Below are positions 4,032 through 29,854 of a stretch of 33,183 bases of DNA, piece by piece; positions within the stretch are counted from its first letter, which is position 1; each line of letters begins with the position of its first letter. Below the pieces are notes generated by a model that worked only from the letters and a program-made list of their open reading frames with translations, was not told the DNA's origin and did not search any database. Origin of the DNA: a virus (taxonomy: Duplodnaviria; Caudoviricetes). The position numbers and the translations under genes are program-made. The stretch lies in IMG/VR virus record IMGVR_UViG_3300027798_000134, positions 1 to 33,183 of that record, one strand, 5' to 3'.

Positions 4032-5624
4032 TTACACCATTGGGCCTCTTTTGTGGATCTCAGCATCCAAACACTCACAAGTGATAATAACACCTGCAAT
4101 GCTGCATGCATTCTCCAAAGCAACCCGAACAACCTTAGCAGGATCAATAACCCCAGAGACAAATAAATCCTCGTGGTTCATTGTCTTTGCATTGTATCCT
4201 ATTGATCTTCCAGACTTAATCTCTTCAACGATAGAGTCAGCCTTGCTGTCAATACCACAGTTAGAAAGGATCTGTCTCAATGGAGCTTCCATAGCCTTCA
4301 AGATAACACCTCTTCCCAACATCTCATCTTCATTTAAAAACTCAGTAGCCTCTAAAACATTCATGCATGATAACAAGCAAGATGCTCCACCTGCAACAAT
4401 ACCTTCCTCAATGGCAGACCTTGTAGCTCTAACAGCATCGTCAACACGATCCTTCTTCTCATTCATTTCAATATCCGTAGACGCACCAACCGACATGATA
4501 GCAACACCACCAGACAATCTTGCCAATCTTCGCTTTAAACGATCAATGTCAAATTCTAACTTAGCGTTTGCTAACAACGCAGTCACCTCATCCTGGCGAA
4601 CCTTAATCGCTTCAGGAGAACCTTTACCATCAATAAATGATGTGGTCAACTCTGTTGAAACAATCTTACCACAGCTACCTAAGTGAGACATAGAAGCATT
4701 TTCAATCTTAATCCCAATAGACTCAGAGATAACAGTTGCACCCGTCAAGGTAGCGATGTCAGACAATGCCTCAGCTCTATATGCAGATGATGGTTTAATT
4801 GCAGATATTTTTAATCCTCCCTGTAACTTATTCATTGTGATGAAAGACAAACCCTCTTGAGTTAAGTCAGAACACACAATAAAGATAGGCTTGCCAGTTG
4901 GTATTGCCTTCTCTAAGATAGGAATAATTTCTTTCGATAGCGTGATGTCATGGTCAGTTACAATAACCAATGCATCCTCCATAACAACCTCCATCTTCTC
5001 TGGGTTAGTTACAAAATACTTGGAGATGTACCCCTTGTCAATTTGCATCCCATCAACAACACGAATTGTCGTTTCTGCTGTACTTGAGTCCTCGATGTCA
5101 ATAACACCTGTCTCACCAATTTTAGCGAAGGCAGAAGCGATTAAATCACCAATTTCTGAGTCATTGTTAGCGGAGATCGTTGCAACATTCTTAATCTTCT
5201 CAACATCTCCATCAATTTTCTTAGAGATAGACTTGATGTGGTTAACAACAATCGCAACAGACTTATCCATTCCTCGCTTAACATCCATTGGATTAGCGGT
5301 TCCTGAGATAGCCACAAGGCCTTCGTTGATCATACTCTGAGCCAACACAGTAGCTGTAGTTGTTCCATCACCAGCATCGTCAACAGTCTTTCTTGCAACA
5401 CCCTTGATAATTTGAGCACCAACATTTTCGATTGGATCCTCTAATTGAATTGATCTTGCAACAGACACACCATCCTTTGTTGCAGATGGCTCTGCTCCAT
5501 GATACTCACTAATAATTACGTTACGTCCCAATGGACCTAATGTCACCTTTACAGCATTTGCTACTGCATCCGAGCCAGCCTTAAGCCTCTCTCTTGCTTC
5601 CTTTCCGAAGATTATTCTTTTCAT
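4032..5624 (-). CDS. groEL: Chaperonin GroEL (Cpn60), phage-encoded
   Basis: 530 aa. AVKVTLGPLGRNV, TKDGVSVAR, AGDGTTTATVLA, RLARLSGGVA, EKKDRVDDA, EEGIVAGG, GVIDPAKV. No C-terminal GGM tail. Confidence 0.97.
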   Translation of the reverse strand: MKRIIFGKEARERLKAGSDAVANAVKVTLGPLGRNVIISEYHGAEPSATKDGVSVARSIQLEDPIENVGAQIIKGVARKTVDDAGDGTTTATVLAQSMINEGLVAISGTANPMDVKRGMDKSVAIVVNHIKSISKKIDGDVEKIKNVATISANNDSEIGDLIASAFAKIGETGVIDIEDSSTAETTIRVVDGMQIDKGYISKYFVTNPEKMEVVMEDALVIVTDHDITLSKEIIPILEKAIPTGKPIFIVCSDLTQEGLSFITMNKLQGGLKISAIKPSSAYRAEALSDIATLTGATVISESIGIKIENASMSHLGSCGKIVSTELTTSFIDGKGSPEAIKVRQDEVTALLANAKLEFDIDRLKRRLARLSGGVAIMSVGASTDIEMNEKKDRVDDAVRATRSAIEEGIVAGGASCLLSCMNVLEATEFLNEDEMLGRGVILKAMEAPLRQILSNCGIDSKADSIVEEIKSGRSIGYNAKTMNHEDLFVSGVIDPAKVVRVALENACSIAGVIITCECLDAEIHKRGPMV

Positions 5625-5642
5625 AGTTATTTATTTGTTTAA

Positions 5643-5900
5643 TTATTGAATTGCTAAAATGTCTTCCTGTTGCATAATCATATACTCCTTGCCATCAATA
5701 GATATGTCAGTTCCTCTATACTTTTGGTACAGAACAATGTCACCCACTTCTACAAGTGTTGCCTTGTCTCCCTTTGCAACGATCCTCCCAGAATATGGTT
5801 TCTCCTTTGCTGAATCAGGAAGGATTAATCCCCCTAAAGTTTTTCCTTGAGCATCATCCTGCTCAATCACTACACGATTTAATAATGGTTTTATTTTCAT
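5643..5900 (-). CDS. groES: Co-chaperonin GroES (Cpn10)
   Basis: 85 aa. MKIKPLLNRVVI, mobile loop TLGGLILPDSAKEKP, VGDIVLY, EDILAI. Confidence 0.95.
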   Translation of the reverse strand: MKIKPLLNRVVIEQDDAQGKTLGGLILPDSAKEKPYSGRIVAKGDKATLVEVGDIVLYQKYRGTDISIDGKEYMIMQQEDILAIQ

Positions 5901-6739
5901 AGAAATTTATAGTTTATATCTTCTGTTGTTAAAAATGAATACTTCTTTCCGCAATAATTTAATTCACTGGTAAGTCCATTGAAGTAGCTAACCTTTTCAC
6001 CGATAGCAACACCCTTAATATCCTCGCCAATATTGTAAACGATACCCACACGAACTCGTGGATTCTTTTGGTAATACAATCCCGATCTCACCTCAGCCTC
6101 TGTAATGTCAGCAACAAGCATCTTGTTTGTTAGGCAAGCCAGTTTCCCGTTTCTCTCAATGCCGATAATGTTTCTGAGCTGCATTCTGTAAAGGTCTGTA
6201 CCTAAAAGTTTAATGTCGTAGTCAGCATTGTTTGTAAAGAAAACAATGTCCCCCAACCTTAGTCCACTCTTCTTAGCCTGATTTGACAAGGCAAAAACTT
6301 TACCCACATTCTTTAGGTAAGCTCTCTCTGTTCTTAACAGTAGACCACTTTCTGTTCTCGTGTGCTCCTCTGGCTCAAGGACAGGCTCTACAAATATATA
6401 GTCTTCTAGTGGCTCTAACTTTGCGTTAACGATCTTAGCCCATATGTGATAGTATTCACACTTATAAAGATTTTCGTCATTATACTTTACCTCATTGTCT
6501 GGTTGGCAAACGAAGTGATGGAACACAACAACGTCTCCCGACTTAACAGGGTTATCGTTTCTGTATTCTGAATCAATTATTTGTGCATTAAACACAACCT
6601 CTCCAATTTGGGTTGCGTGATGATATTTATTAAAATCAGTATCAAGGTGTAGATTACCTCCACTGTGTCCAATAACTGAAGTGACTCTTTTAGAATCAAT
6701 ATCAGCTCGGATCAAGAATAAATCTTTGATTAGCTTCAC
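5897..6739 (-). CDS. Protein of three tandem GroES/Cpn10-like domains
   Basis: 280 aa with a GTG start, overlapping the groES start by 4 nt. Three units carry GroES hallmarks (GEVV..VKSGDVVVF; PLEDYIFV..TESGLLL..GKVFAL..LGDIVFF; RSGLYY..GIVYNIG..IGEKVSY..EDI). Confidence 0.75.
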   Translation of the reverse strand: MKLIKDLFLIRADIDSKRVTSVIGHSGGNLHLDTDFNKYHHATQIGEVVFNAQIIDSEYRNDNPVKSGDVVVFHHFVCQPDNEVKYNDENLYKCEYYHIWAKIVNAKLEPLEDYIFVEPVLEPEEHTRTESGLLLRTERAYLKNVGKVFALSNQAKKSGLRLGDIVFFTNNADYDIKLLGTDLYRMQLRNIIGIERNGKLACLTNKMLVADITEAEVRSGLYYQKNPRVRVGIVYNIGEDIKGVAIGEKVSYFNGLTSELNYCGKKYSFLTTEDINYKFL

Positions 6740-22686: not shown

Positions 22687-23468
22687 GATCATTAGGATGT
22701 CCCTTCGGGCAACCCGCTTTTTGTTCCAATCTCTGCCAAAAAAGGGCAGAGGATTTCCACTACAATCGGGCATATCTGCGGAATGTTTTAAGCACATTTT
22801 ACATGAGATGCAAAAGGACGTTATCGGCAAAATTGAAAAACAAGAAAAAAGGGCTGTAACGTATAATCACAAAGGGCTGGATGCTATTTTCTCGATTTTT
22901 ACCCTCTCATCTGGTAAGCATGTTTTTGGTCATTTTTGGTATTTATTCTTGAACATGACATGCAAAAAAGTCTTTATTCTTTCACGTCTATTTTAGTCTT
23001 ATTTTTTACTGTTTATCTTGTATGTTTTTTTATAGCTTTAAAGAAAGAAAAGAAGTAAGAAACAACGAGTAAGAAACTGTTAAGAAAAGAAAGAAAAGTC
23101 CCCTAGGAAAAGTAATTTTCACGCTCTAAAATAGAGCATGTGTTCGGTCCAAAAATCATCTACAATTTAAGTTTAGGCAATAAGGAACAAAGGCCATACA
23201 TTCCATGAGAACATCTGCTATACCTTGAATTCATATCGTTTATTTTTATTCATCACCTATATATATAAAAAGTAAAAGCCCTTTCCAATTTCTCGGAAGG
23301 GCTATTAATGAAAGGGCTTTACTAACAGTATACTGTTATTTTTGATGTAATACTTTAAATGCTTTTATTATCCTTCCGAGATAACAGCACAAACATACAT
23401 AAAAACATAATACGAGCATAAAAAAAGCATCATTATTTTTAAAATAAGTCAAAAAATAGTCATTTCTT

Positions 23469-23487
23469 ATTTAGAATCATTCTAAAG
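23469..23487. promoter_or_regulatory. Palindromic operator-like box ATTTAGAATCATTCTAAAG
   Basis: TTTAGAAT-c-ATTCTAAA is a perfect dyad, related to the three late-promoter boxes. Confidence 0.6.
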
Positions 23488-23637
23488 TTAGCCTCTACAG
23501 ACCGCATAAACATTGTAAAAATGAAAATACTTTGCATTTTTATGCAATGTGTGTTTTAAAAATAAATATTTCTACATGCATTGATTTCATTATGTGTTCA
23601 GAGGTAGTGAAAAAGTGAAACCCTTTATCCATGCCGC

Positions 23638-23668
23638 TTGTGGGATTAGTATTGTCACCATATATTTG
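23638..23668 (+). promoter_or_regulatory. Bacteroidota promoter TTG-N20-TATATTTG at the head of the small-ORF array
   Basis: -7 box at 23661-23668, followed by an A-rich leader and the ATG at 23703. Confidence 0.65.
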
Positions 23669-23702
23669 TATCAGAAAAACAAACAACTAAAAAACTAAAA
23701 TT

Positions 23703-23981
23703 ATGAAAACTCAAGTAACAAAATTAGAAATGGAATTATTAAATTTAATAAAACTTTATACAGAGGAACAATTTAGTAGTGATACCCCAATGTGGTGTTA
23801 TACAAATGATATAGATACAGATATGGTTATTATGAGGGGAGTTATTAGTTCACTTATTAAAAAAGGAATTATAAATACTAAATCATACCAATCTACAAAT
23901 GATGCTTTAGAAGTTGATTCAAAATATTATGAAGTAGGTGAAGATTATATTGCAAAGTTTATAACATTAGAAGTAAAATAA
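23703..23981 (+). CDS. Small protein, possible winged helix
   Basis: 92 aa. MRGVISSLIKKGII motif. Confidence 0.7.
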   Translation: MKTQVTKLEMELLNLIKLYTEEQFSSDTPMWCYTNDIDTDMVIMRGVISSLIKKGIINTKSYQSTNDALEVDSKYYEVGEDYIAKFITLEVK

Positions 23982-24036
23982 ATAACAAAGGGGAGCAGTA
24001 TCCTATCAACTGCATTAACTTTAAACACTAGAAATC

Positions 24037-24126
24037 ATGTACACAAGAAAAGAAAAATTAGTTCTAAAATTAGCAATCCTTTATGTTATCACTGCTATCT
24101 GTTTACTGTTCATTTTACGATATTAA
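24037..24126 (+). CDS. 29-aa membrane peptide (not in the ORF track)
   Basis: MYTRKEKLVLKLAILYVITAICLLFILRY with an A-rich leader. Confidence 0.55.
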   Translation: MYTRKEKLVLKLAILYVITAICLLFILRY

Positions 24127-24133
24127 AAAAAAA

Positions 24134-24163
24134 TGTAACCTTTCAAAATTATCAGCGTATAAC
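24134..24163 (+). promoter_or_regulatory. ECF-type promoter TGTAACC-N15-CGTATAAC
   Basis: Repeated motif upstream of the 24192 ORF. Confidence 0.75.
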
Positions 24164-24191
24164 GAGTATAAACAATCTAAAAACTAAAATT

Positions 24192-24428
24192 ATGGAACTA
24201 ATTAAAAAATTCAAACCGTCTCAGAAATTAACAAAAATTCAAGTAGAAGAAGCAATGAAAGAGGGAGCAATACTTTCACTGACTCGCAGCCCTTATCCTC
24301 GCTGGATTTTAACTTTTGCGGATGATACCTGCCATGAATACATTAGAAAAGATGCTACGGTGGGATTAGAAAACATTGAATTGTTTCATGTAGATAAATT
24401 TGCAGATTCTTATAGACTAAAAAAATAA
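24192..24428 (+). CDS. Small hypothetical protein
   Basis: 78 aa with its own promoter and A-rich leader. Confidence 0.7.
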   Translation: MELIKKFKPSQKLTKIQVEEAMKEGAILSLTRSPYPRWILTFADDTCHEYIRKDATVGLENIELFHVDKFADSYRLKK

Positions 24429-24429
24429 A

Positions 24430-24459
24430 TGTAACCTTTCAAAATAACATCCGTATAAC
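24430..24459 (+). promoter_or_regulatory. ECF-type promoter TGTAACC-N15-CGTATAAC
   Basis: Repeated motif upstream of the 24488 ORF. Confidence 0.75.
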
Positions 24460-24487
24460 AAGTATAAACAACTAAAACCTAAACACT

Positions 24488-24673
24488 ATGAAAAATCTAA
24501 CAGCAAAGCAAAAAATCACTAGCAACAGTCACTCCTTGAGACTCCGTAACATGATGAGTGATGAACTAAAAAAAGCGATCAGAGAGAATTTAAGTCAAGA
24601 GGTGATCACTTATTATCAGAGAGAAATTGACGAAATAAACGAGCATCTAGACAGTCTAGGCTTCAGAGATTAA
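24488..24673 (+). CDS. Small hypothetical protein
   Basis: 61 aa with an AAACACTATG leader. Confidence 0.7.
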   Translation: MKNLTAKQKITSNSHSLRLRNMMSDELKKAIRENLSQEVITYYQREIDEINEHLDSLGFRD

Positions 24674-24675
24674 AA

Positions 24676-24731
24676 AGTTAACTGATGAGTCCTGAATGGA
24701 CGAAACGAGCAGAACATCGCTCGTCTTAACT
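24676..24731 (+). ncRNA. Hammerhead ribozyme, type I
   Basis: Stem I AGTTAA/TTAACT; core CTGATGA; stem II GTCC-tgaat-GGAC; GAAA; stem III CGAGC-agaacatc-GCTCG; GTC cleavage triplet (cut after 24725). Confidence 0.93.
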
Positions 24732-24746
24732 AAAAAAATAAACACT

Positions 24747-24884
24747 ATGAAAACTGACAAGCAATTACAATTTTTTTCTAAATGGAGAAACAAATGGATA
24801 GACTTCAAAAATCCTCCGACAGCAGAAGAGATGAAAAGTTATAGAGATCATAAATATGAGATCAGAGAAAAAAAATCAAAATAA
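24747..24884 (+). CDS. Small hypothetical protein (45 aa)
   Basis: MKTDKQLQFFSKW... after AAACACTATG. The ORF-track start at 24696 falls inside the ribozyme. Confidence 0.65.
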   Translation: MKTDKQLQFFSKWRNKWIDFKNPPTAEEMKSYRDHKYEIREKKSK

Positions 24885-24885
24885 A

Positions 24886-24915
24886 TGTAACCTTAATTAA
24901 AATCCAGCGTATAAC
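24886..24915 (+). promoter_or_regulatory. ECF-type promoter TGTAACC-N15-CGTATAAC
   Basis: Repeated motif upstream of the 24933 ORF. Confidence 0.75.
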
Positions 24916-24932
24916 TAATAAAAACAAACAAC

Positions 24933-25124
24933 ATGAACGAATATAAAATTATCACACTGAGAGATGACAGCGAAAAGATCATCAAAGGTAACGAGGGCAA
25001 ATTAAGACGATACATCTTCAATAATTACAGCGGAGACATTCAAAAAATACTCCGCCACACAGTGAAGGTGACAGTGAAAGAAGAGGGCGAAAGCGAATTT
25101 AAAGACTTCAAAACTGCATGGTAA
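24933..25124 (+). CDS. Small hypothetical protein
   Basis: 63 aa with its own promoter. Confidence 0.7.
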   Translation: MNEYKIITLRDDSEKIIKGNEGKLRRYIFNNYSGDIQKILRHTVKVTVKEEGESEFKDFKTAW

Positions 25125-25141
25125 AAAAAAATCAAAATAAA

Positions 25142-25171
25142 TGTAACCTTTAAAAAATCACCCCGTATAAC
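25142..25171 (+). promoter_or_regulatory. ECF-type promoter TGTAACC-N15-CGTATAAC
   Basis: Repeated motif upstream of the 25203 ORF. Confidence 0.75.
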
Positions 25172-25202
25172 AAGTAAATTAACCACTAAAACTATAAACA
25201 CT

Positions 25203-25388
25203 ATGAAAACTGAAGACACAACAAATCCAACATTTTCCGTTACATTGATTCGCCACGAATTTGAAAAAATAAAAATTGATGTTTATAACTATAAACTTTA
25301 TAGTGAAGCAGAAGAAATCGTCAAAATAATGTATTCAGACTTTTTTAATGCAGGATGGAAAATAAAAAAAATAAAAAAAGAAATGTAA
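25203..25388 (+). CDS. Small hypothetical protein
   Basis: 61 aa. Its stop TAA lies inside the next promoter's TGTAACC. Confidence 0.7.
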   Translation: MKTEDTTNPTFSVTLIRHEFEKIKIDVYNYKLYSEAEEIVKIMYSDFFNAGWKIKKIKKEM

Positions 25389-25413
25389 CCTTTCAAAAAA
25401 TCCAGCGTATAAC
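25384..25413 (+). promoter_or_regulatory. ECF-type promoter TGTAACC-N15-CGTATAAC
   Basis: Repeated motif. The downstream GAGTATAAACAATCTAAAAA is identical to the 24134 copy. Confidence 0.75.
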
Positions 25414-25442
25414 GAGTATAAACAATCTAAAAAATAAACACT

Positions 25443-25778
25443 ATGAAAACTACAAGAGAAAAAATCGAAGCATCAATCCTGAGACAACAATACAGTCAAC
25501 GAGGAGGCGGAGTCGAAATTGACCTATCAAAATTCGGCTTCAGAGAGGGAAGCAGAATGTCAGCCTATCAAAATTATTTAGGCGGTGGAATGTTGGGAAG
25601 CATTCAGACAAACCACAACATCTTCAGGACATCATTCACTACCACTGAAGCAAAAAAATTGGAAAGAATAGCTACGGAACTAGCAAAGTATTTCCACGAT
25701 CTAACTAATCACGAGGACGATGAATGGGAGTCCGCATCCTTCGAAGAAAATCAAAACAGACCTTCATCTGCATACTAA
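25443..25778 (+). CDS. Hypothetical protein
   Basis: 111 aa. AYQNYLGGGMLG motif and an acidic tail. Confidence 0.75.
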   Translation: MKTTREKIEASILRQQYSQRGGGVEIDLSKFGFREGSRMSAYQNYLGGGMLGSIQTNHNIFRTSFTTTEAKKLERIATELAKYFHDLTNHEDDEWESASFEENQNRPSSAY

Positions 25779-25798
25779 CTTTAAAAACTATAAAAATT

Positions 25799-26104
25799 AT
25801 GAAAACAAAAAATCAATATCAAGATGGGAATTATTCATTCGAAAACAAATACAGCTATGCTCGTAAAAATATAAAGAATGACCATGTAAAATTAAAGGAT
25901 GGTACATTAGTTCATGTAGATGAATTCGTTAAAAAAAATAACTTCAGCAGTTTTAAATTTGAATTAATAAACGAAAAAATTCAGAACATTGATGAAGCAT
26001 TAAAACAAGCCCTAGAAACGGTTGAAAGTCTGCCCGACCAACAGAAGCACCTTGACGCTAGGTATTGGTTATTAAAACGCATAAAAGAGGCAGAAAAAGG
26101 TTAA
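25799..26104 (+). CDS. Hypothetical protein
   Basis: ATG at 25799 after an A-rich leader. The stop TAA is part of hammerhead stem I. Confidence 0.7.
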   Translation: MKTKNQYQDGNYSFENKYSYARKNIKNDHVKLKDGTLVHVDEFVKKNNFSSFKFELINEKIQNIDEALKQALETVESLPDQQKHLDARYWLLKRIKEAEKG

Positions 26105-26148
26105 CTGAAGAGGATTCAATATCCGAAACGCTGTGAAGCGTCTTAACC
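26099..26148 (+). ncRNA. Hammerhead ribozyme, type I
   Basis: Stem I GGTTAA/TTAACC; core CTGAAGA; stem II GGAT-tcaat-ATCC; GAAA; stem III CGCT-gtga-AGCG; GTC triplet (cut after 26142). Confidence 0.92.
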
Positions 26149-26165
26149 AAATAAAAAAAAACACT

Positions 26166-26411
26166 ATGAAAAATTCAAATTTCAACAGAAGATTCACCGT
26201 TCAGATCAGTGAACAAGGTACTACATGTTCAGTAAAAAATGTAACAGTAGAAAGGCTGACAGAGAAAAGAGACAGCGAATACGAGTGGATTTATTCTATT
26301 CAATCTGATTATCTAGATCAAATTCTCGATCTGAAGGTAGGAGAAAACATTTTCTTTCAACCGAATAGAGATGACAGTAAAAGTAAAGGGATCATAACAA
26401 GAATCTCTTAG
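26166..26411 (+). CDS. Hypothetical protein
   Basis: MKNSNFNRRF... after AAACACTATG. The ORF-track start at 26133 falls inside the ribozyme. Confidence 0.7.
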   Translation: MKNSNFNRRFTVQISEQGTTCSVKNVTVERLTEKRDSEYEWIYSIQSDYLDQILDLKVGENIFFQPNRDDSKSKGIITRIS

Positions 26412-26452
26412 TAACTAATAAAGAACGACTAACTAACTTAAAAAAAAACACT

Positions 26453-26572
26453 ATGAAAAAGCTATTGAAACGTATCCAAAAAATGTTTGCATCTGACAAA
26501 CAAGCAACACAAACAAGCCTCGAAAAAGAGTATATGAAGTATGAACGGTTTGCAAGGGTGGTGTTTGTATAA
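26453..26572 (+). CDS. 39-aa hypothetical protein (not in the ORF track)
   Basis: MKKLLKRIQKMFASDK...VVFV, after the partial repeat and AAACACTATG. Confidence 0.6.
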   Translation: MKKLLKRIQKMFASDKQATQTSLEKEYMKYERFARVVFV

Positions 26573-26626
26573 ACACCCCCGACATTAACTGAGAACGACT
26601 AACTAACTTTAAAAAAAAATACTACC

Positions 26627-26926
26627 ATGAGCGAAGAAATTAAAAAATTATTGCAAGGAATTCTGAAGCAATACATTGTCCATAACAACATAAAATTGGA
26701 GGACGCATGCATACTAAATGTCCGCTACAAAGAAAAAGGTTTTGAATATTTACAAGCCATTCAGAACGTAGTTAAAAAAGATGTCGAAAGTGCATCCCTA
26801 GGACTAAACACAAAACGGATGACACAATTACAGCAGAGAGCATTTAATACATCCTTGACGCATGGTTTAACGAAGTTAGCGGAGTATATGGTGACGGGAA
26901 GAGAGACAATAAACGAAATTAAATAA
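26627..26926 (+). CDS. Hypothetical protein
   Basis: 99 aa after a 21-bp repeat. Confidence 0.7.
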   Translation: MSEEIKKLLQGILKQYIVHNNIKLEDACILNVRYKEKGFEYLQAIQNVVKKDVESASLGLNTKRMTQLQQRAFNTSLTHGLTKLAEYMVTGRETINEIK

Positions 26927-26945
26927 ACACTAAAAAATAAACACT

Positions 26946-27113
26946 ATGAAAACATACACATTTAATCTAGAAAGTAAATTAGGAACTATAGACTCAATTA
27001 CTTTGTCGGGACCAAATAGAAGGTCAGCAAAACAATTTGCTAAATTTCTTCTCTACAAAAGGTTTAAACATAACTTTCCATCGGGAAATATTAAGACAAC
27101 GTACATTGTTTAA
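26946..27113 (+). CDS. 55-aa hypothetical protein (not in the ORF track)
   Basis: MKTYTFNLESKLG...TTYIV with an AAACACTATG leader. Confidence 0.6.
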   Translation: MKTYTFNLESKLGTIDSITLSGPNRRSAKQFAKFLLYKRFKHNFPSGNIKTTYIV

Positions 27114-27173
27114 AAAAGCCAAGGTAAACGAACATTAACTGAGAACGACTAACTAACTTAAAAAAATACTACC

Positions 27174-27425
27174 ATGAAAACAGAAATTAATTTTAACAAC
27201 AAAAATTGCGGATTTACTTTTGACCTAGAGGCAAAGGAAATTAACGGTTGGGACTTTACAGACAAGTATAACGATGTGAAGTGTTACAATAAGACAAGCA
27301 GATCGATCAAAAAAGCCTTAGCTAATTTGCAAAAGGAATTTAACGATGACCTATCAATGTATCAAGTGATGGACATTATCAGAAATTCGGGAGTAAAAAT
27401 GCGTTCCTACTGCGGGATGGATTAA
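27174..27425 (+). CDS. Hypothetical protein
   Basis: 83 aa after a 21-bp repeat. Confidence 0.7.
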   Translation: MKTEINFNNKNCGFTFDLEAKEINGWDFTDKYNDVKCYNKTSRSIKKALANLQKEFNDDLSMYQVMDIIRNSGVKMRSYCGMD

Positions 27426-27481
27426 ACAGCCAAGGTAAACGAACACTAACTGAGAACGACTAACTAAAACTAAAAAAAACT

Positions 27482-27646
27482 ATGAAAACTTTCAAGACAA
27501 TAGAACAAGCAGTTTCTTACATCAAAAATCTAAAGGGAAAAACTGTGGGAGACATCCTCTCCATAAAGTCAGAACTAATTAAAAAGAAGCTAACTAAGGT
27601 AAAGGGAACGTATATTTTTATAGATGAGTTTGACCTCCTCGCATAA
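27482..27646 (+). CDS. 54-aa hypothetical protein (not in the ORF track)
   Basis: MKTFKTIEQAVSYIKNL...DLLA after a 21-bp repeat. Confidence 0.6.
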   Translation: MKTFKTIEQAVSYIKNLKGKTVGDILSIKSELIKKKLTKVKGTYIFIDEFDLLA

Positions 27647-27672
27647 AAAAAATAAAAATAAAACAAAAAAAA

Positions 27673-27702
27673 CGTAACCTTTTTGAAAAGTATACGTACA
27701 AG
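27673..27702 (+). promoter_or_regulatory. ECF-type promoter CGTAACC-N15-CGTACAAG
   Basis: Variant copy followed 5 nt later by the 21-bp repeat. Confidence 0.65.
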
Positions 27703-27741
27703 GACTATAACTGAGAACGACTAACTAAAAAAACTAAAATT

Positions 27742-28110
27742 ATGAACACAAAACAATCAATCACAAAGCTAGCAATTGAGAAAATTGCAAAAGAGAATCC
27801 AGCAGGATTTACCATCAACAAGAAGACCTTACAACCTATTTTGAAAGGATATGCTGTAGCTATTTTAGAGACGCAAGATAGTTTTGGGAGCGAGGGTTTA
27901 GATAAGGTAATGGAGTTTGCAAAGCCATCATTTGTGGATGCATACGGAGGGTGGCTGAACGAAAAAAACGGGGAGTATTACTACGATGCGGTGATGGTTC
28001 TTGATGACTTAAGGACTGCATTATTTTTAGGGTTCCGTAACAAACAAATAGCTATATTTGACCTTGAAAAAGGGAAGGAAATAAAATTGCTGAAGGAAGA
28101 TATTGTTTAA
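27742..28110 (+). CDS. Hypothetical phage protein
   Basis: 122 aa. GFT, GYAVA, GGWL..YYYD and QIAIFDL motifs. Confidence 0.75.
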   Translation: MNTKQSITKLAIEKIAKENPAGFTINKKTLQPILKGYAVAILETQDSFGSEGLDKVMEFAKPSFVDAYGGWLNEKNGEYYYDAVMVLDDLRTALFLGFRNKQIAIFDLEKGKEIKLLKEDIV

Positions 28111-28182
28111 AAAATTAGGGGCGGAGTTTAGTAGTGTTTTCTCCGTCCCCCCGAAAGGGCAAACAAAAATACACACAAATAT

Positions 28183-28416
28183 ATGGAACCAAAGATCGAA
28201 TACATTACAATAGACTTTATGCTGTTTAACAAGGTTTTCTCGGGAGAGAACATCTACCAAGATCAAGAGGTAGCAATACGAGAGGCAAAGTTACTGAAGG
28301 CGGAGTTTGAGGTGGCGGGACTATACCCTTCCATAAGCATAGTCTTCAGCTACGAGGATGGGGAAATAACAGCATGGGACTTGGATTTATTAACATACAT
28401 GAGGAACACTAACTAA
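28183..28416 (+). CDS. Small acidic hypothetical protein
   Basis: 77 aa with an A-rich leader. Confidence 0.65.
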   Translation: MEPKIEYITIDFMLFNKVFSGENIYQDQEVAIREAKLLKAEFEVAGLYPSISIVFSYEDGEITAWDLDLLTYMRNTN

Positions 28417-28434
28417 CACTAAAAAATAAACACT

Positions 28435-28659
28435 ATGAAAAACGCAAAAGAACGCTTTGAAGAGATTAAAAAATTAATTGACTGTGATATGATTCCCGAG
28501 GGATGCGAAATGCGTCTATGGATTAATAACTGCACAAGAAAAGAACTTCTTACCCTTGGTGCTGAACTAGAAATTCTTTGCGAGGAAAGAAGCGATAGCA
28601 ATCCAAAGATTCATCTCTATATTGAATACAAAGGTCACGACATTTATATGTGGGAATAA
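28435..28659 (+). CDS. Small hypothetical protein
   Basis: 74 aa with an AAACACTATG leader. Confidence 0.7.
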   Translation: MKNAKERFEEIKKLIDCDMIPEGCEMRLWINNCTRKELLTLGAELEILCEERSDSNPKIHLYIEYKGHDIYMWE

Positions 28660-28788
28660 AGATGCCTAGAAAAGTTTTAAAGGTTGATTGGGGAAAACTG
28701 CTCATGCGGAAGAGGAGGTTAAAAGCCGAAGTAATGCCAATCATAAAATCAGATGTCCACACACCCATCTTCTGCTTTCCTATTTTAT

Positions 28789-28877
28789 GACCAAATGGCG
28801 GAATGGTAGACGCATAATACTAAATGAGAGTGAGCTGATCCGATCTCTTATTGCAGGTTCGATTCCTGCTTTGGTCA
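28789..28877 (+). ncRNA. tRNA-like RNA lacking a pairable anticodon arm
   Basis: Acceptor GACCAAA/TTTGGTC plus A. Leu-type D arm TGGCGGAATGGTAGACGC. T arm GCAGG-TTCGATT-CCTGC. The middle segment has no anticodon stem but forms AATGAGAG/CTCTTATT. Confidence 0.8.
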
Positions 28878-28913
28878 CCGAACATTAACTGAGAACGACT
28901 AACTAAAGAAACT

Positions 28914-29066
28914 ATGAAGCTATTTAATTTAGAACTCGCAAGGGGAAAATTCTCCAAGGAGGTTGTTGCAAGGTGCGTCCCATACGCAATTGCAGTAAGT
29001 AAGAAGAAGCAACTAATTTCCAACGGAACTATTCCGAGGAACATTTGGATCGTTGCTGTAAAATAA
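28914..29066 (+). CDS. 50-aa hypothetical protein (not in the ORF track)
   Basis: MKLFNLELARGKF...VAVK after a 21-bp repeat. Confidence 0.55.
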   Translation: MKLFNLELARGKFSKEVVARCVPYAIAVSKKKQLISNGTIPRNIWIVAVK

Positions 29067-29068
29067 AG

Positions 29069-29099
29069 TTTGTATTTTAAAACAATTTAATTATATTTG
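29069..29099 (+). promoter_or_regulatory. Bacteroidota promoter TTTG-N19-TATATTTG
   Basis: Exact consensus at the head of the replication-side operon. Confidence 0.8.
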
Positions 29100-29121
29100 C
29101 AACCTAAACTAAAAAAAACCT

Positions 29122-29328
29122 ATGCTACAACACGAACAAGATGATCTAAGCAGATCAAAGGAAATGGTACTACTACAGAGGGTACTAACTGTGATAAAGG
29201 ATAACTTTTCCGATGCACACAACCAGATGAAGGGACGAACACAGTCAGACCAAACAATTATCGGAGGCACACTGACATCCCTTGAGATTGAGATCAAAAA
29301 AGAGATTAAACAATTAACAACTTACTAA
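29122..29328 (+). CDS. Small hypothetical protein
   Basis: 68 aa, first gene after the promoter. Confidence 0.65.
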   Translation: MLQHEQDDLSRSKEMVLLQRVLTVIKDNFSDAHNQMKGRTQSDQTIIGGTLTSLEIEIKKEIKQLTTY

Positions 29329-29347
29329 CCAAAAAAACCCTAAAACT

Positions 29348-29854
29348 ATGACAATCAGATTAAACACACTAAACAAGCACGTTGAGTACCTTAATGGAAT
29401 CAACGCACTGGCAATGGCTGACAGAATATATTATTCTGACATCACTAAGGCACGCTCAACATATGCGGTGGCTGGCTCCCTATTCACAACAGCAACAAAG
29501 TTAAACTACTTCACAAAGATTGACCGAGGAGTTTACAAGTCAAATGTTTCTCGATTTGAACCTAAGCATGCACGTGTTCTGATCGAGGCTGATGGCGAAT
29601 ACAAGAAGCTGTCTAGGGTATCCCCAACACGCAAGAAGAGATCAAGCAAGAAGAAGTACACTGGAGATGTGCTTAACGCTAAGGACTCTAAGGCAACATT
29701 TGAGTATATTTGGAAGAATCACCCCGAGGTGGAACGTAAGGCTCAGGACGTGTTTATCGGTGACGTTATCTCTCCATCTACAAAGGTGAAGCAGACAAGA
29801 AAGCGTAGAAAAGTTTTTAGTTTATTCTGGGGACTAGTTAAATTTAACTACTAA
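29348..29854 (+). CDS. Basic hypothetical protein
   Basis: 168 aa, K/R-rich, with a C-terminal FSLFWGLVKF motif. Confidence 0.7.
   Translation: MTIRLNTLNKHVEYLNGINALAMADRIYYSDITKARSTYAVAGSLFTTATKLNYFTKIDRGVYKSNVSRFEPKHARVLIEADGEYKKLSRVSPTRKKRSSKKKYTGDVLNAKDSKATFEYIWKNHPEVERKAQDVFIGDVISPSTKVKQTRKRRKVFSLFWGLVKFNY

Follow-up and report, generated by a model that had tools for sequence, protein, structure and literature searches.

A phage small-gene region with two hammerhead motifs

The window analysed here is an entire virus record of 33,183 nt (IMGVR_UViG_3300027798_000134; 54% complete). A PHROG search with 54 ORFs identified genes for terminase, portal, GroEL/GroES and primase-helicase. The terminase is 37% identical to the terminases of Flavobacterium Elemoviruses, and 86 of the 87 records that it matches are named as phages of Flavobacterium, Cellulophaga, Tenacibaculum or Maribacter. 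In 11 freshwater runs, six of which are possible sources of the window DNA, at least half of the words of the region were present. The terminase kinship, a Flavo-1 RNA scoring above its threshold and the freshwater runs together make Bacteroidota the likely host. The Flavo-1 RNA itself (22706-22777, minus strand; Rfam 52.4 bits, above the gathering score) sits in the phage record, and the chaperonin genes comprise GroEL and two GroES-like genes, one of 280 aa (4032-6739, minus strand).

Both hammerheads are surrounded by an AT-rich run of small ORFs, which is probably an early region, because a host-type −7 promoter box stands at its head and it lies ahead of the replication genes (Table 1). 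None of the small ORFs searched in 23703-29328 matched a family in PHROG (54 ORFs) or Pfam (17 ORFs), and a search of viral contigs for homologues of the flanking proteins returned only one near-identical contig for each of two proteins. The ORF that ends at 26104 is alternatively listed with an upstream start, ATG 25724. A tRNA-like gene (28789-28879; called as Ile(AAT) by ARAGORN, 43 bits with Rfam) has a poorly paired anticodon arm, a long variable arm and a D arm that we take to resemble that of tRNA-Leu; one relative from a DNA run, X13, lacks 28666-28863. An RNA run (X23; share 0.06) yielded seven contigs on 23600-29200, none of them over either ribozyme and none on 26040-26240, and says nothing on cleavage or circles.

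Table 1. Features at and around the two hammerhead motifs (positions are those of the window)
Feature	Position	Strand	Remarks
Type I hammerhead, copy 2	26099..26148	+	sequence, descriptor scan, fold, family model R1
Copy 2 stem I	26099-26104 / 26143-26148	+	GGTTAA / TTAACC
Copy 2 core	26105-26111; 26125-26128; 26141-26142	+	CTGAAGA; GAAA; TC
Copy 2 stem II	26112-26124	+	GGAT/ATCC, loop TCAAT
Copy 2 stem III	26129-26140	+	CGCT/AGCG, GTGA loop
A2.7, unpaired A ahead of stem I	26098	+	A in 191/192 members found without a stem I constraint
Loop II UCAAU	26116..26120	+	U26120, its last base, is predicted to dock with A26149
A1.7, first base 3' of stem I	26149	+	covaries with the final base of loop II
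Type I hammerhead, copy 1	24676..24731	+	predicted cut after 24725, 21 nt before ATG 24747
ORF 5' of copy 1	24488..24673	+	61 aa; stop ends 2 nt before stem I
Upstream ORF	25799..26104	+	101 aa from ATG 25799; TAA within stem I; no PHROG/Pfam match
Downstream ORF	26166..26411	+	81 aa; no PHROG/Pfam match; two contigs of relatives skip it
Stretch between the two cuts	24726..26142	+	1,417 nt; five small ORFs (24747, 24933, 25203, 25443, 25799), three promoter-like repeats
A-rich 23-nt leader, no Shine-Dalgarno	26143..26165	+	on predicted 3' product; unpaired in fold of 26143-26190
Five promoter-like repeats GTAACC-N17-TATAAC	24135, 24431, 24887, 25143, 25385 (span 24135..25413)	+	repeat families D1/D2
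Host-type −7 promoter box TATATTTG	23661..23668	+	head of small-gene region; consensus TAHHTTTG, as given in the accessible text of PMC6847099

Reading of the sequence confirmed that copy 2 is a complete type I hammerhead motif. It matches the hammerhead core C3-U4-G5-A6-N7-G8-A9, G12-A13-A14 and A15-U16-H17, and the helices next to the core are 6, 4 and 5 bp long (I, II and III, respectively), II and III being closed by loops and I open. The GTC triplet places the predicted cut after C26142, between 26142 and 26143. A hammerhead descriptor gave two matches in the window and none in 200 locally shuffled windows, and the hammerhead is the minimum-energy fold of both copies (z −2.39 and −2.35). 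The stem I duplex is worth only −4.1 kcal/mol. The layout proposed for copy 2 in the initial annotation, with TAA 26102-26104 in stem I and a cut 23 nt before ATG 26166, agrees exactly with the sequence, and copy 1 and the interval of about 1.4 kb were also as described there. The two copies do have GTTAA/TTAAC in common, as that annotation held, but stem I has six pairs, not five, and the outermost is not the same in both (G-C vs A-U).

Copy 2 is missed by Rfam. With RF00163, copy 1 scored 30.7 bits, under the gathering score of 34, and was aligned over all 45 model positions; copy 2 was not reported at E<=1. Topology and core are those of RF00163, from which both copies differ in their 5-nt loop II and stable stem III. 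RF03152 (RAGATH-1-hammerhead) models a motif with a single base pair in stem II and an additional 5' hairpin, whereas both copies here have a 4-bp stem II, and copy 1 scored 30.4 bits (E 0.25) against its gathering score of 56.3. Our own family model, R1, scored copy 2, which is in its training set, at 74 bits, and copy 1, which is outside it, at 62.8 bits.

A compact subfamily and its predicted loop II contact

The initial annotation had taken the stem differences between the two copies as a sign of selection on structure. Two copies alone are insufficient for that conclusion, and it was borne out by a family alignment. A first set was collected with a pattern containing TTAA arms, which retrieved 135 stretches (about 550 estimated) and gave 144 distinct motifs, the two of the window included, or 132 after similar flanks were collapsed. 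From the 52 members with a 13-nt stem II region and a 12- or 14-nt stem III region, 50 were aligned. In this alignment the stems covary: 13 of the 16 named pairs have changed on both sides. The paired share, 98.9% of 800 cells, was not reached in any of 500 shuffles, and is inflated because sequences had to form the structure to be included.

Two further scans left stem I free, with constraints on the core and loop II alone, and thus provide sets that are unbiased in stem I. The scan for loops ending in A retrieved 125 stretches (about 160 estimated) and 117 distinct matches, of which 84 were complete; collapsing left 78, and stem I was of 6 bp in 66. The scan for loops ending in U retrieved 133 stretches from IMG/VR (about 1,700 estimated) and 142 distinct matches, with 136 complete, 126 after collapsing and all 126 having a 6-bp stem I. 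On these sequence features, copy 2 is a member of a large and common compact phage subfamily whose stem I is of 6 bp and whose loop II reads U-N-A-N-U. A pattern scan of genome contigs gave 53 loci, 18 with the full motif (32 distinct copies) and 35 without the motif by descriptor, and BLASTN of copy 2 against INPHARED returned five weak partial matches only. In whole records the copies cluster within a few kb, at 1 to 9 per genome (9 in G001), and no locus carries copies on both strands. G001 and related contigs (L008, L009, L141, L146-L148 and L159), with up to nine hammerheads in about 4.3 kb, have been binned into MAGs.

In the first set, the last base of loop II (L2.5) and the first base 3' of stem I (1.7) covaried, being U-A in 96, G-A in 10, A-U in 8 and A-A in 2 of 116 members. 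The two scans with a free stem I served to test this covariation as a prediction. When loop II ended in U, 1.7 was A in 126 of 126 members; among the 66 members with a loop II ending in A, 50 had U at 1.7, 15 had A and one had G (Fisher P = 2e-32, without correction for relatedness). Many lineages must be involved, because stem I sequences vary widely in both scan sets. A multi-base pseudoknot was rejected as the form of the contact: of the 25 pairs with the strongest mutual information in the 116 members, a single one, between the final base of loop II and 1.7, links that loop to a flank. A third class of loop II ends in G with A1.7 (10 of 116), mostly with U before the G, and is perhaps a one-base shift of the same contact.

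Schistosoma and sTRSV hammerheads dock by a Hoogsteen pair between a loop II A and U1.7 (O'Rourke et al., as described in the accessible parts of PMC11875169, PMC9217987 and PMC6155905). The covariation seen here involves the same two positions and fits that pair, with its order mostly reversed. The minority class, loops ending in A, has the known order (50 of 66), whereas the majority class would pair a loop II U with A1.7 (126 of 126) opposite a fixed A2.7. The subfamily also differs from the arrays of Perreault et al. (2011), in which about 40% of the hammerheads dock by a pseudoknot with several covarying loop–tail pairs and the docking of the others is left unexplained (accessible parts of PMC3088659). 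Those parts of that paper do not describe hammerheads that combine an L2.5–1.7 pair with a 6-bp stem I and a loop II of the U-N-A-N-U type. A string search of 11 of its supplements found no members of the subfamily, a result that alignment gaps would produce even if members were present, and its Figure S5 and Dataset S1 may hold some. A literature search, with most subscription papers outside its scope, found no description of the compact subfamily or of the reversed pair. What makes the subfamily of interest is that it is common, is missed by Rfam thresholds and is predicted to fit a docking pair of reversed order into about 50 nt.

The subfamily also extends to cultured phages. The R1 covariance model found a copy in NC_055854.1 (16301-16364, minus strand; E 3e-8) with the same loop II and A1.7 and with its cut 28 nt before the next ATG. 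The region is matched at >=90% by 68 Elemovirus records (Flavobacterium sp. BAL314), and the elemoA copy has a compensatory change in stem II. Two Elemovirus records that we examined annotate a hypothetical protein opposite the hammerhead (L188, 16289-16396; L452, 385-492); on the ribozyme strand there is an uncalled ORF of 21 codons, ending in a TAG that overlaps stem I. Cultured Elemoviruses with an unannotated hammerhead offer a test system, in which the RNA ends can be mapped in infected cells.

Stop codons, leaders and the probable role of the cut

Copy 2 fills the gap between the stop codon of one small gene and the ribosome-binding leader of the next. The leader has an A at −3 of the downstream start, as in the Bacteroidetes start regions described in PMC6847099. 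Across 139 members the distance from cut to ATG has a median of 23 nt (IQR 21-26). The sets found with stem I free gave medians of 25 and 26 nt (n=115 and n=60, respectively) with a wider spread, only 62/115 and 39/60 of the leaders being 18-28 nt long. Leaders are enriched in A at −3, −6 and −11 to −13, and 26 of 128 contain a Shine-Dalgarno-like word.

The repeats GTAACC-N17-TATAAC are putative promoters and match neither the Bacteroidetes consensus nor a sigma-70 scan. If transcription starts 7 nt past the second hexamer, their leaders would be 22, 22, 11, 25 and 23 nt long, as against 21 and 23 nt at the two ribozymes. Four terminator-like sites were found in 23400-29400, all on the minus strand and none on the plus strand. 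Because three of the repeats lie between the ribozymes and no plus-strand terminator was found, the RNAs to be expected are nested, sharing an end at 26142 and reaching at most 1,417 nt. The excision of an RNA of about 1.4 kb, as first proposed, would hold for transcripts started upstream of copy 1 but not for others, given the three promoter-like repeats inside the interval.

We think it probable that copy 2 cuts the early transcript after C26142 and leaves the next gene with a 23-nt A-rich leader bearing a predicted 5'-OH. The ribozyme would fold during transcription, loop II docking on the end of stem I through the U(L2.5)–A1.7 pair, and the cut would be nearly one-way because the short, AU-rich stem I would let the products part. 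The new leader would resemble those predicted for four of the five promoter-like repeats (22-25 nt), so that every small gene would start alike, regardless of the sequence before it, and copy 2 would produce mRNA 5' ends without a promoter, much as a natural counterpart of the RiboJ insulator. According to PMC6206723, RiboJ increases transcript levels about 2-fold and protein levels 2-10-fold. The likeness is functional only: both cuts remove upstream RNA and standardise the 5' end before a ribosome-binding site, but RiboJ is engineered and leaves a 5' hairpin, whereas the product here is predicted to be unstructured. There is a precedent in haloviruses: one hammerhead lies 13 nt before the start of an early gene, and a transcript 5' end lies within 3 nt of a hammerhead cut (PMC3088659).

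A role at the 5' end is not universal, because a promoter-like box or no near start codon follows some of the ribozymes. There is no near start codon 3' of the cut in six genome copies (L140, L142, L145, L174, L182 and L187), all except L140 from Bacteroidota genome records (Pedobacter, Mucilaginibacter or Paraflavitalea). On contig IMGVR_UViG_3300049491_000350 (L066-L070), 17 nt separate the hammerhead 3' arm TTAACC from a downstream TATAAC; in comparison with GTAACC-N17-TATAAC, the arm would double there as the first promoter hexamer.

A different reading starts from the upstream gene. The initial annotation had proposed that the TAA inside stem I couples cleavage to translation, a terminating ribosome blocking the fold. 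The family does not bear this out for the stop codon itself: in the sets found with stem I free, the abutting stop triplet is the stop of the upstream gene in 24 of 69 cases, about the third expected by frame, and copy 1 does without it, its upstream stop (24671-24673) lying 2 nt ahead of stem I. In the first set (111 members; 21 of 132 were dropped for want of a clear upstream frame), the upstream gene used the stem I TAA in 35, the TGA of the core in 21 and a TAG that overlaps the outer pair in 15, and in 14 its stop immediately preceded the stem. From the chance-level use of the abutting triplet and these varied positions, the embedded TAA is one of several solutions, and we read it as tight packing, not a switch.

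In a wider form, the idea is that ribosomes on the upstream gene set the rate of cleavage, by blocking the fold at termination or by masking competitor RNA. The upstream stop lies within −4 to +10 nt of the core in 100 of 111 members of the first set and in 131 of 161 members of the stem I-free sets (31 of 192 dropped). The footprint of a terminating ribosome would cover the hammerhead 5' arm and core at such stop positions. Upstream reading frames are non-random (52/44/15; P = 3.6e-5), and the depletion of the frame that reads through the core (15 of 111) hints that ribosome traffic over the core matters. Predicted folding points to competition as well, the median stem I probability falling from 0.97 to 0.40 when 60 nt of upstream RNA is added (189 members). 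For copy 1 it is at most 0.26 (<=0.26) once >=20 nt of upstream RNA is included. In copy 2, the competitor in some of the stretches folded is a 7-bp helix formed between 26065-26071 and 26144-26150. Since naked upstream RNA lowers predicted stem I formation, ribosomes could help as easily as block, and some effect of translation on the ribozyme, in either direction, is possible according to these models.

Several observations weigh against translational gating as the purpose of the arrangement, beyond the chance share of the abutting stop. Real upstream RNA competes no more than shuffled RNA (stem I probability 0.40 vs 0.39, P = 0.09), and a selected anti-ribozyme helix in the upstream gene was accordingly rejected at the family level. 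The competition predicted for copy 2 depends on the stretch folded (stem I probability 0.02-0.98). Stops are also packed against the promoter-like repeats, those at 24428 and 24884 ending 2 nt before one and the TAA at 25386-25388 lying inside one, so that tight packing explains the stop positions. No selected switch is apparent from the sequences, and we consider gating by translation improbable, if the best placed of the alternatives to the 5'-end role.

The cut might instead serve chiefly the upstream piece, by making its 3' end, which would determine how stable the upstream mRNA is or shield it from promoters located downstream. The predicted cyclic phosphate end would lie behind two hairpins, in the stretch (23400-29400) that lacks plus-strand terminators; the motif begins right at the stop codon in most members, and on 3300049491_000350 the 3' arm would itself be part of a promoter. 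The narrow distance from cut to ATG in most members points to the downstream gene instead, and a main role upstream seems to us very unlikely, even if the two roles are not exclusive.

A further repeat occupies the slot of the ribozymes, about 20 nt before start codons. Repeat D3 (26586, 27136, 27447, 27708 and 28886; partial at 26415 and 28395) resembles in its letters the hammerhead 5' arm, core junction and 3' arm minus both hairpins, and stem I cannot form. The copy at 27708 follows TTGAAA-N17-TATAAC, and a second promoter class is at least as likely as a collapsed hammerhead. An exact search for D3 found only one near-identical contig and a single occurrence in an unrelated contig.

Probable cassette borders and possible fates of the predicted excised RNA

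Relatives in X13 (one DNA run, contig depth 4-11) show gene exchange at the borders of both motifs. Copy 1 is kept with a different gene before it, and copy 2 is kept while the gene after it is replaced or 291 or 412 nt after it are skipped (joints 26148->26440 and 26158->26571). One X13 contig can be aligned with copy 1 from 24674 onwards but not across its stem III, where it departs from that copy, and over 26124-26172 it agrees with copy 2 apart from two differences; with the stem III of copy 2 at the position of copy 1, we read it as a probable chimera of the two, its 5' half having been compared in part. Another has paired stem II changes at 26113/26123 and 26114/26122. Copy 2 thus likely marks a point of gene swapping between relatives. 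The arrangement itself is not new, hammerheads between phage genes having been known since 2011: as in the arrays of Perreault et al. (PMC3088659), where clustered hammerheads flank single or blocks of variable phage or prophage genes, the two copies lie between phage genes whose neighbours differ in relatives. The same source shows self-cleavage of clustered prophage hammerheads both in vitro and in E. coli, proposes that transcripts are processed into gene-length mRNAs, and considers circles. Type I hammerheads of phages are otherwise known, and their role in bacteria and phages has been called open (PMC6765202, PMC6155905 and PMC13725137, in their accessible parts).

Adjacent copies within a genome are matched in stem I. 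They are fully cross-compatible in 22 of 37 pairs, compared with 6.6% of random pairs, and their normalised identity is 0.64 in stem I, against 0.15 in stem II and 0.43 in stem III (P = 0.0009 and 0.011; 36 pairs). A crossover inside the motif would select for such matching, because hairpins II and III travel whole and stem I is split. If, as we suppose, the copies double as crossover points for swaps of gene cassettes, stem I would be kept alike among the copies of one genome because it alone spans the whole motif. RNA ligation would select for stem I matching too, and this is the one result that keeps a circular RNA alive as an explanation.

The circular alternative, raised in the initial annotation, holds that RNA cut at both ribozymes is joined into stable circular mRNAs, either by a host RtcB or by a hybrid hammerhead rebuilt from its own ends. 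The hybrid would combine the 5' arm and core of copy 2 with the 3' arm of copy 1, and these ends are compatible at 6 of 6 pairs, one of them G-U. Adjacent copies that stay compatible, with stem I kept more than II or III, would suit such joining, and a Bacteroidota host may have RtcB because B. thetaiotaomicron, our search control, does. Against it, 15 of 37 adjacent pairs are not fully compatible, and compatibility is symmetric (22 circle-type and 21 skip-type of 36), as recombination also predicts. The hybrid duplex is worth only −2.4 kcal/mol, and the Elemovirus elemoE has a single copy. No RtcB was found in the window record or in five other array-bearing phage records, three of the six being >=90% complete, and similar arrays gave no circular or spliced products in the accessible account of Perreault et al. 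(2011; PMC3088659). Shared stem I sequences would allow joining even without a ligase. We give little credence to circles of either origin. The general form of this idea, in which early phage hammerheads with genome-matched stem I let the RNA between cuts rebuild a hybrid hammerhead that closes it or joins fragments without a ligase, is a long shot to the same degree; if true, DNA phages would gain ribozyme-made circular or reshuffled mRNAs.

That the motif is an inactive or passively spreading repeat of no benefit to the phage is hardly tenable: copy number does range from 1 to 9 per genome and self-cleavage here is predicted, but the core is invariant, all three stems and the tertiary pair have compensatory changes, and the 68 Elemovirus records carry a copy with a compensatory stem II change between the two compared.

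Family statistics separate the hypotheses, the embedded stop being used at chance, leader length being constrained and stem I being matched within genomes. If the ribozyme cleaves fast at low magnesium, it would be a compact natural insulator and add to the rules of hammerhead docking. Arrays of the G001 type mix both docking classes in one genome and form a natural series for kinetics.
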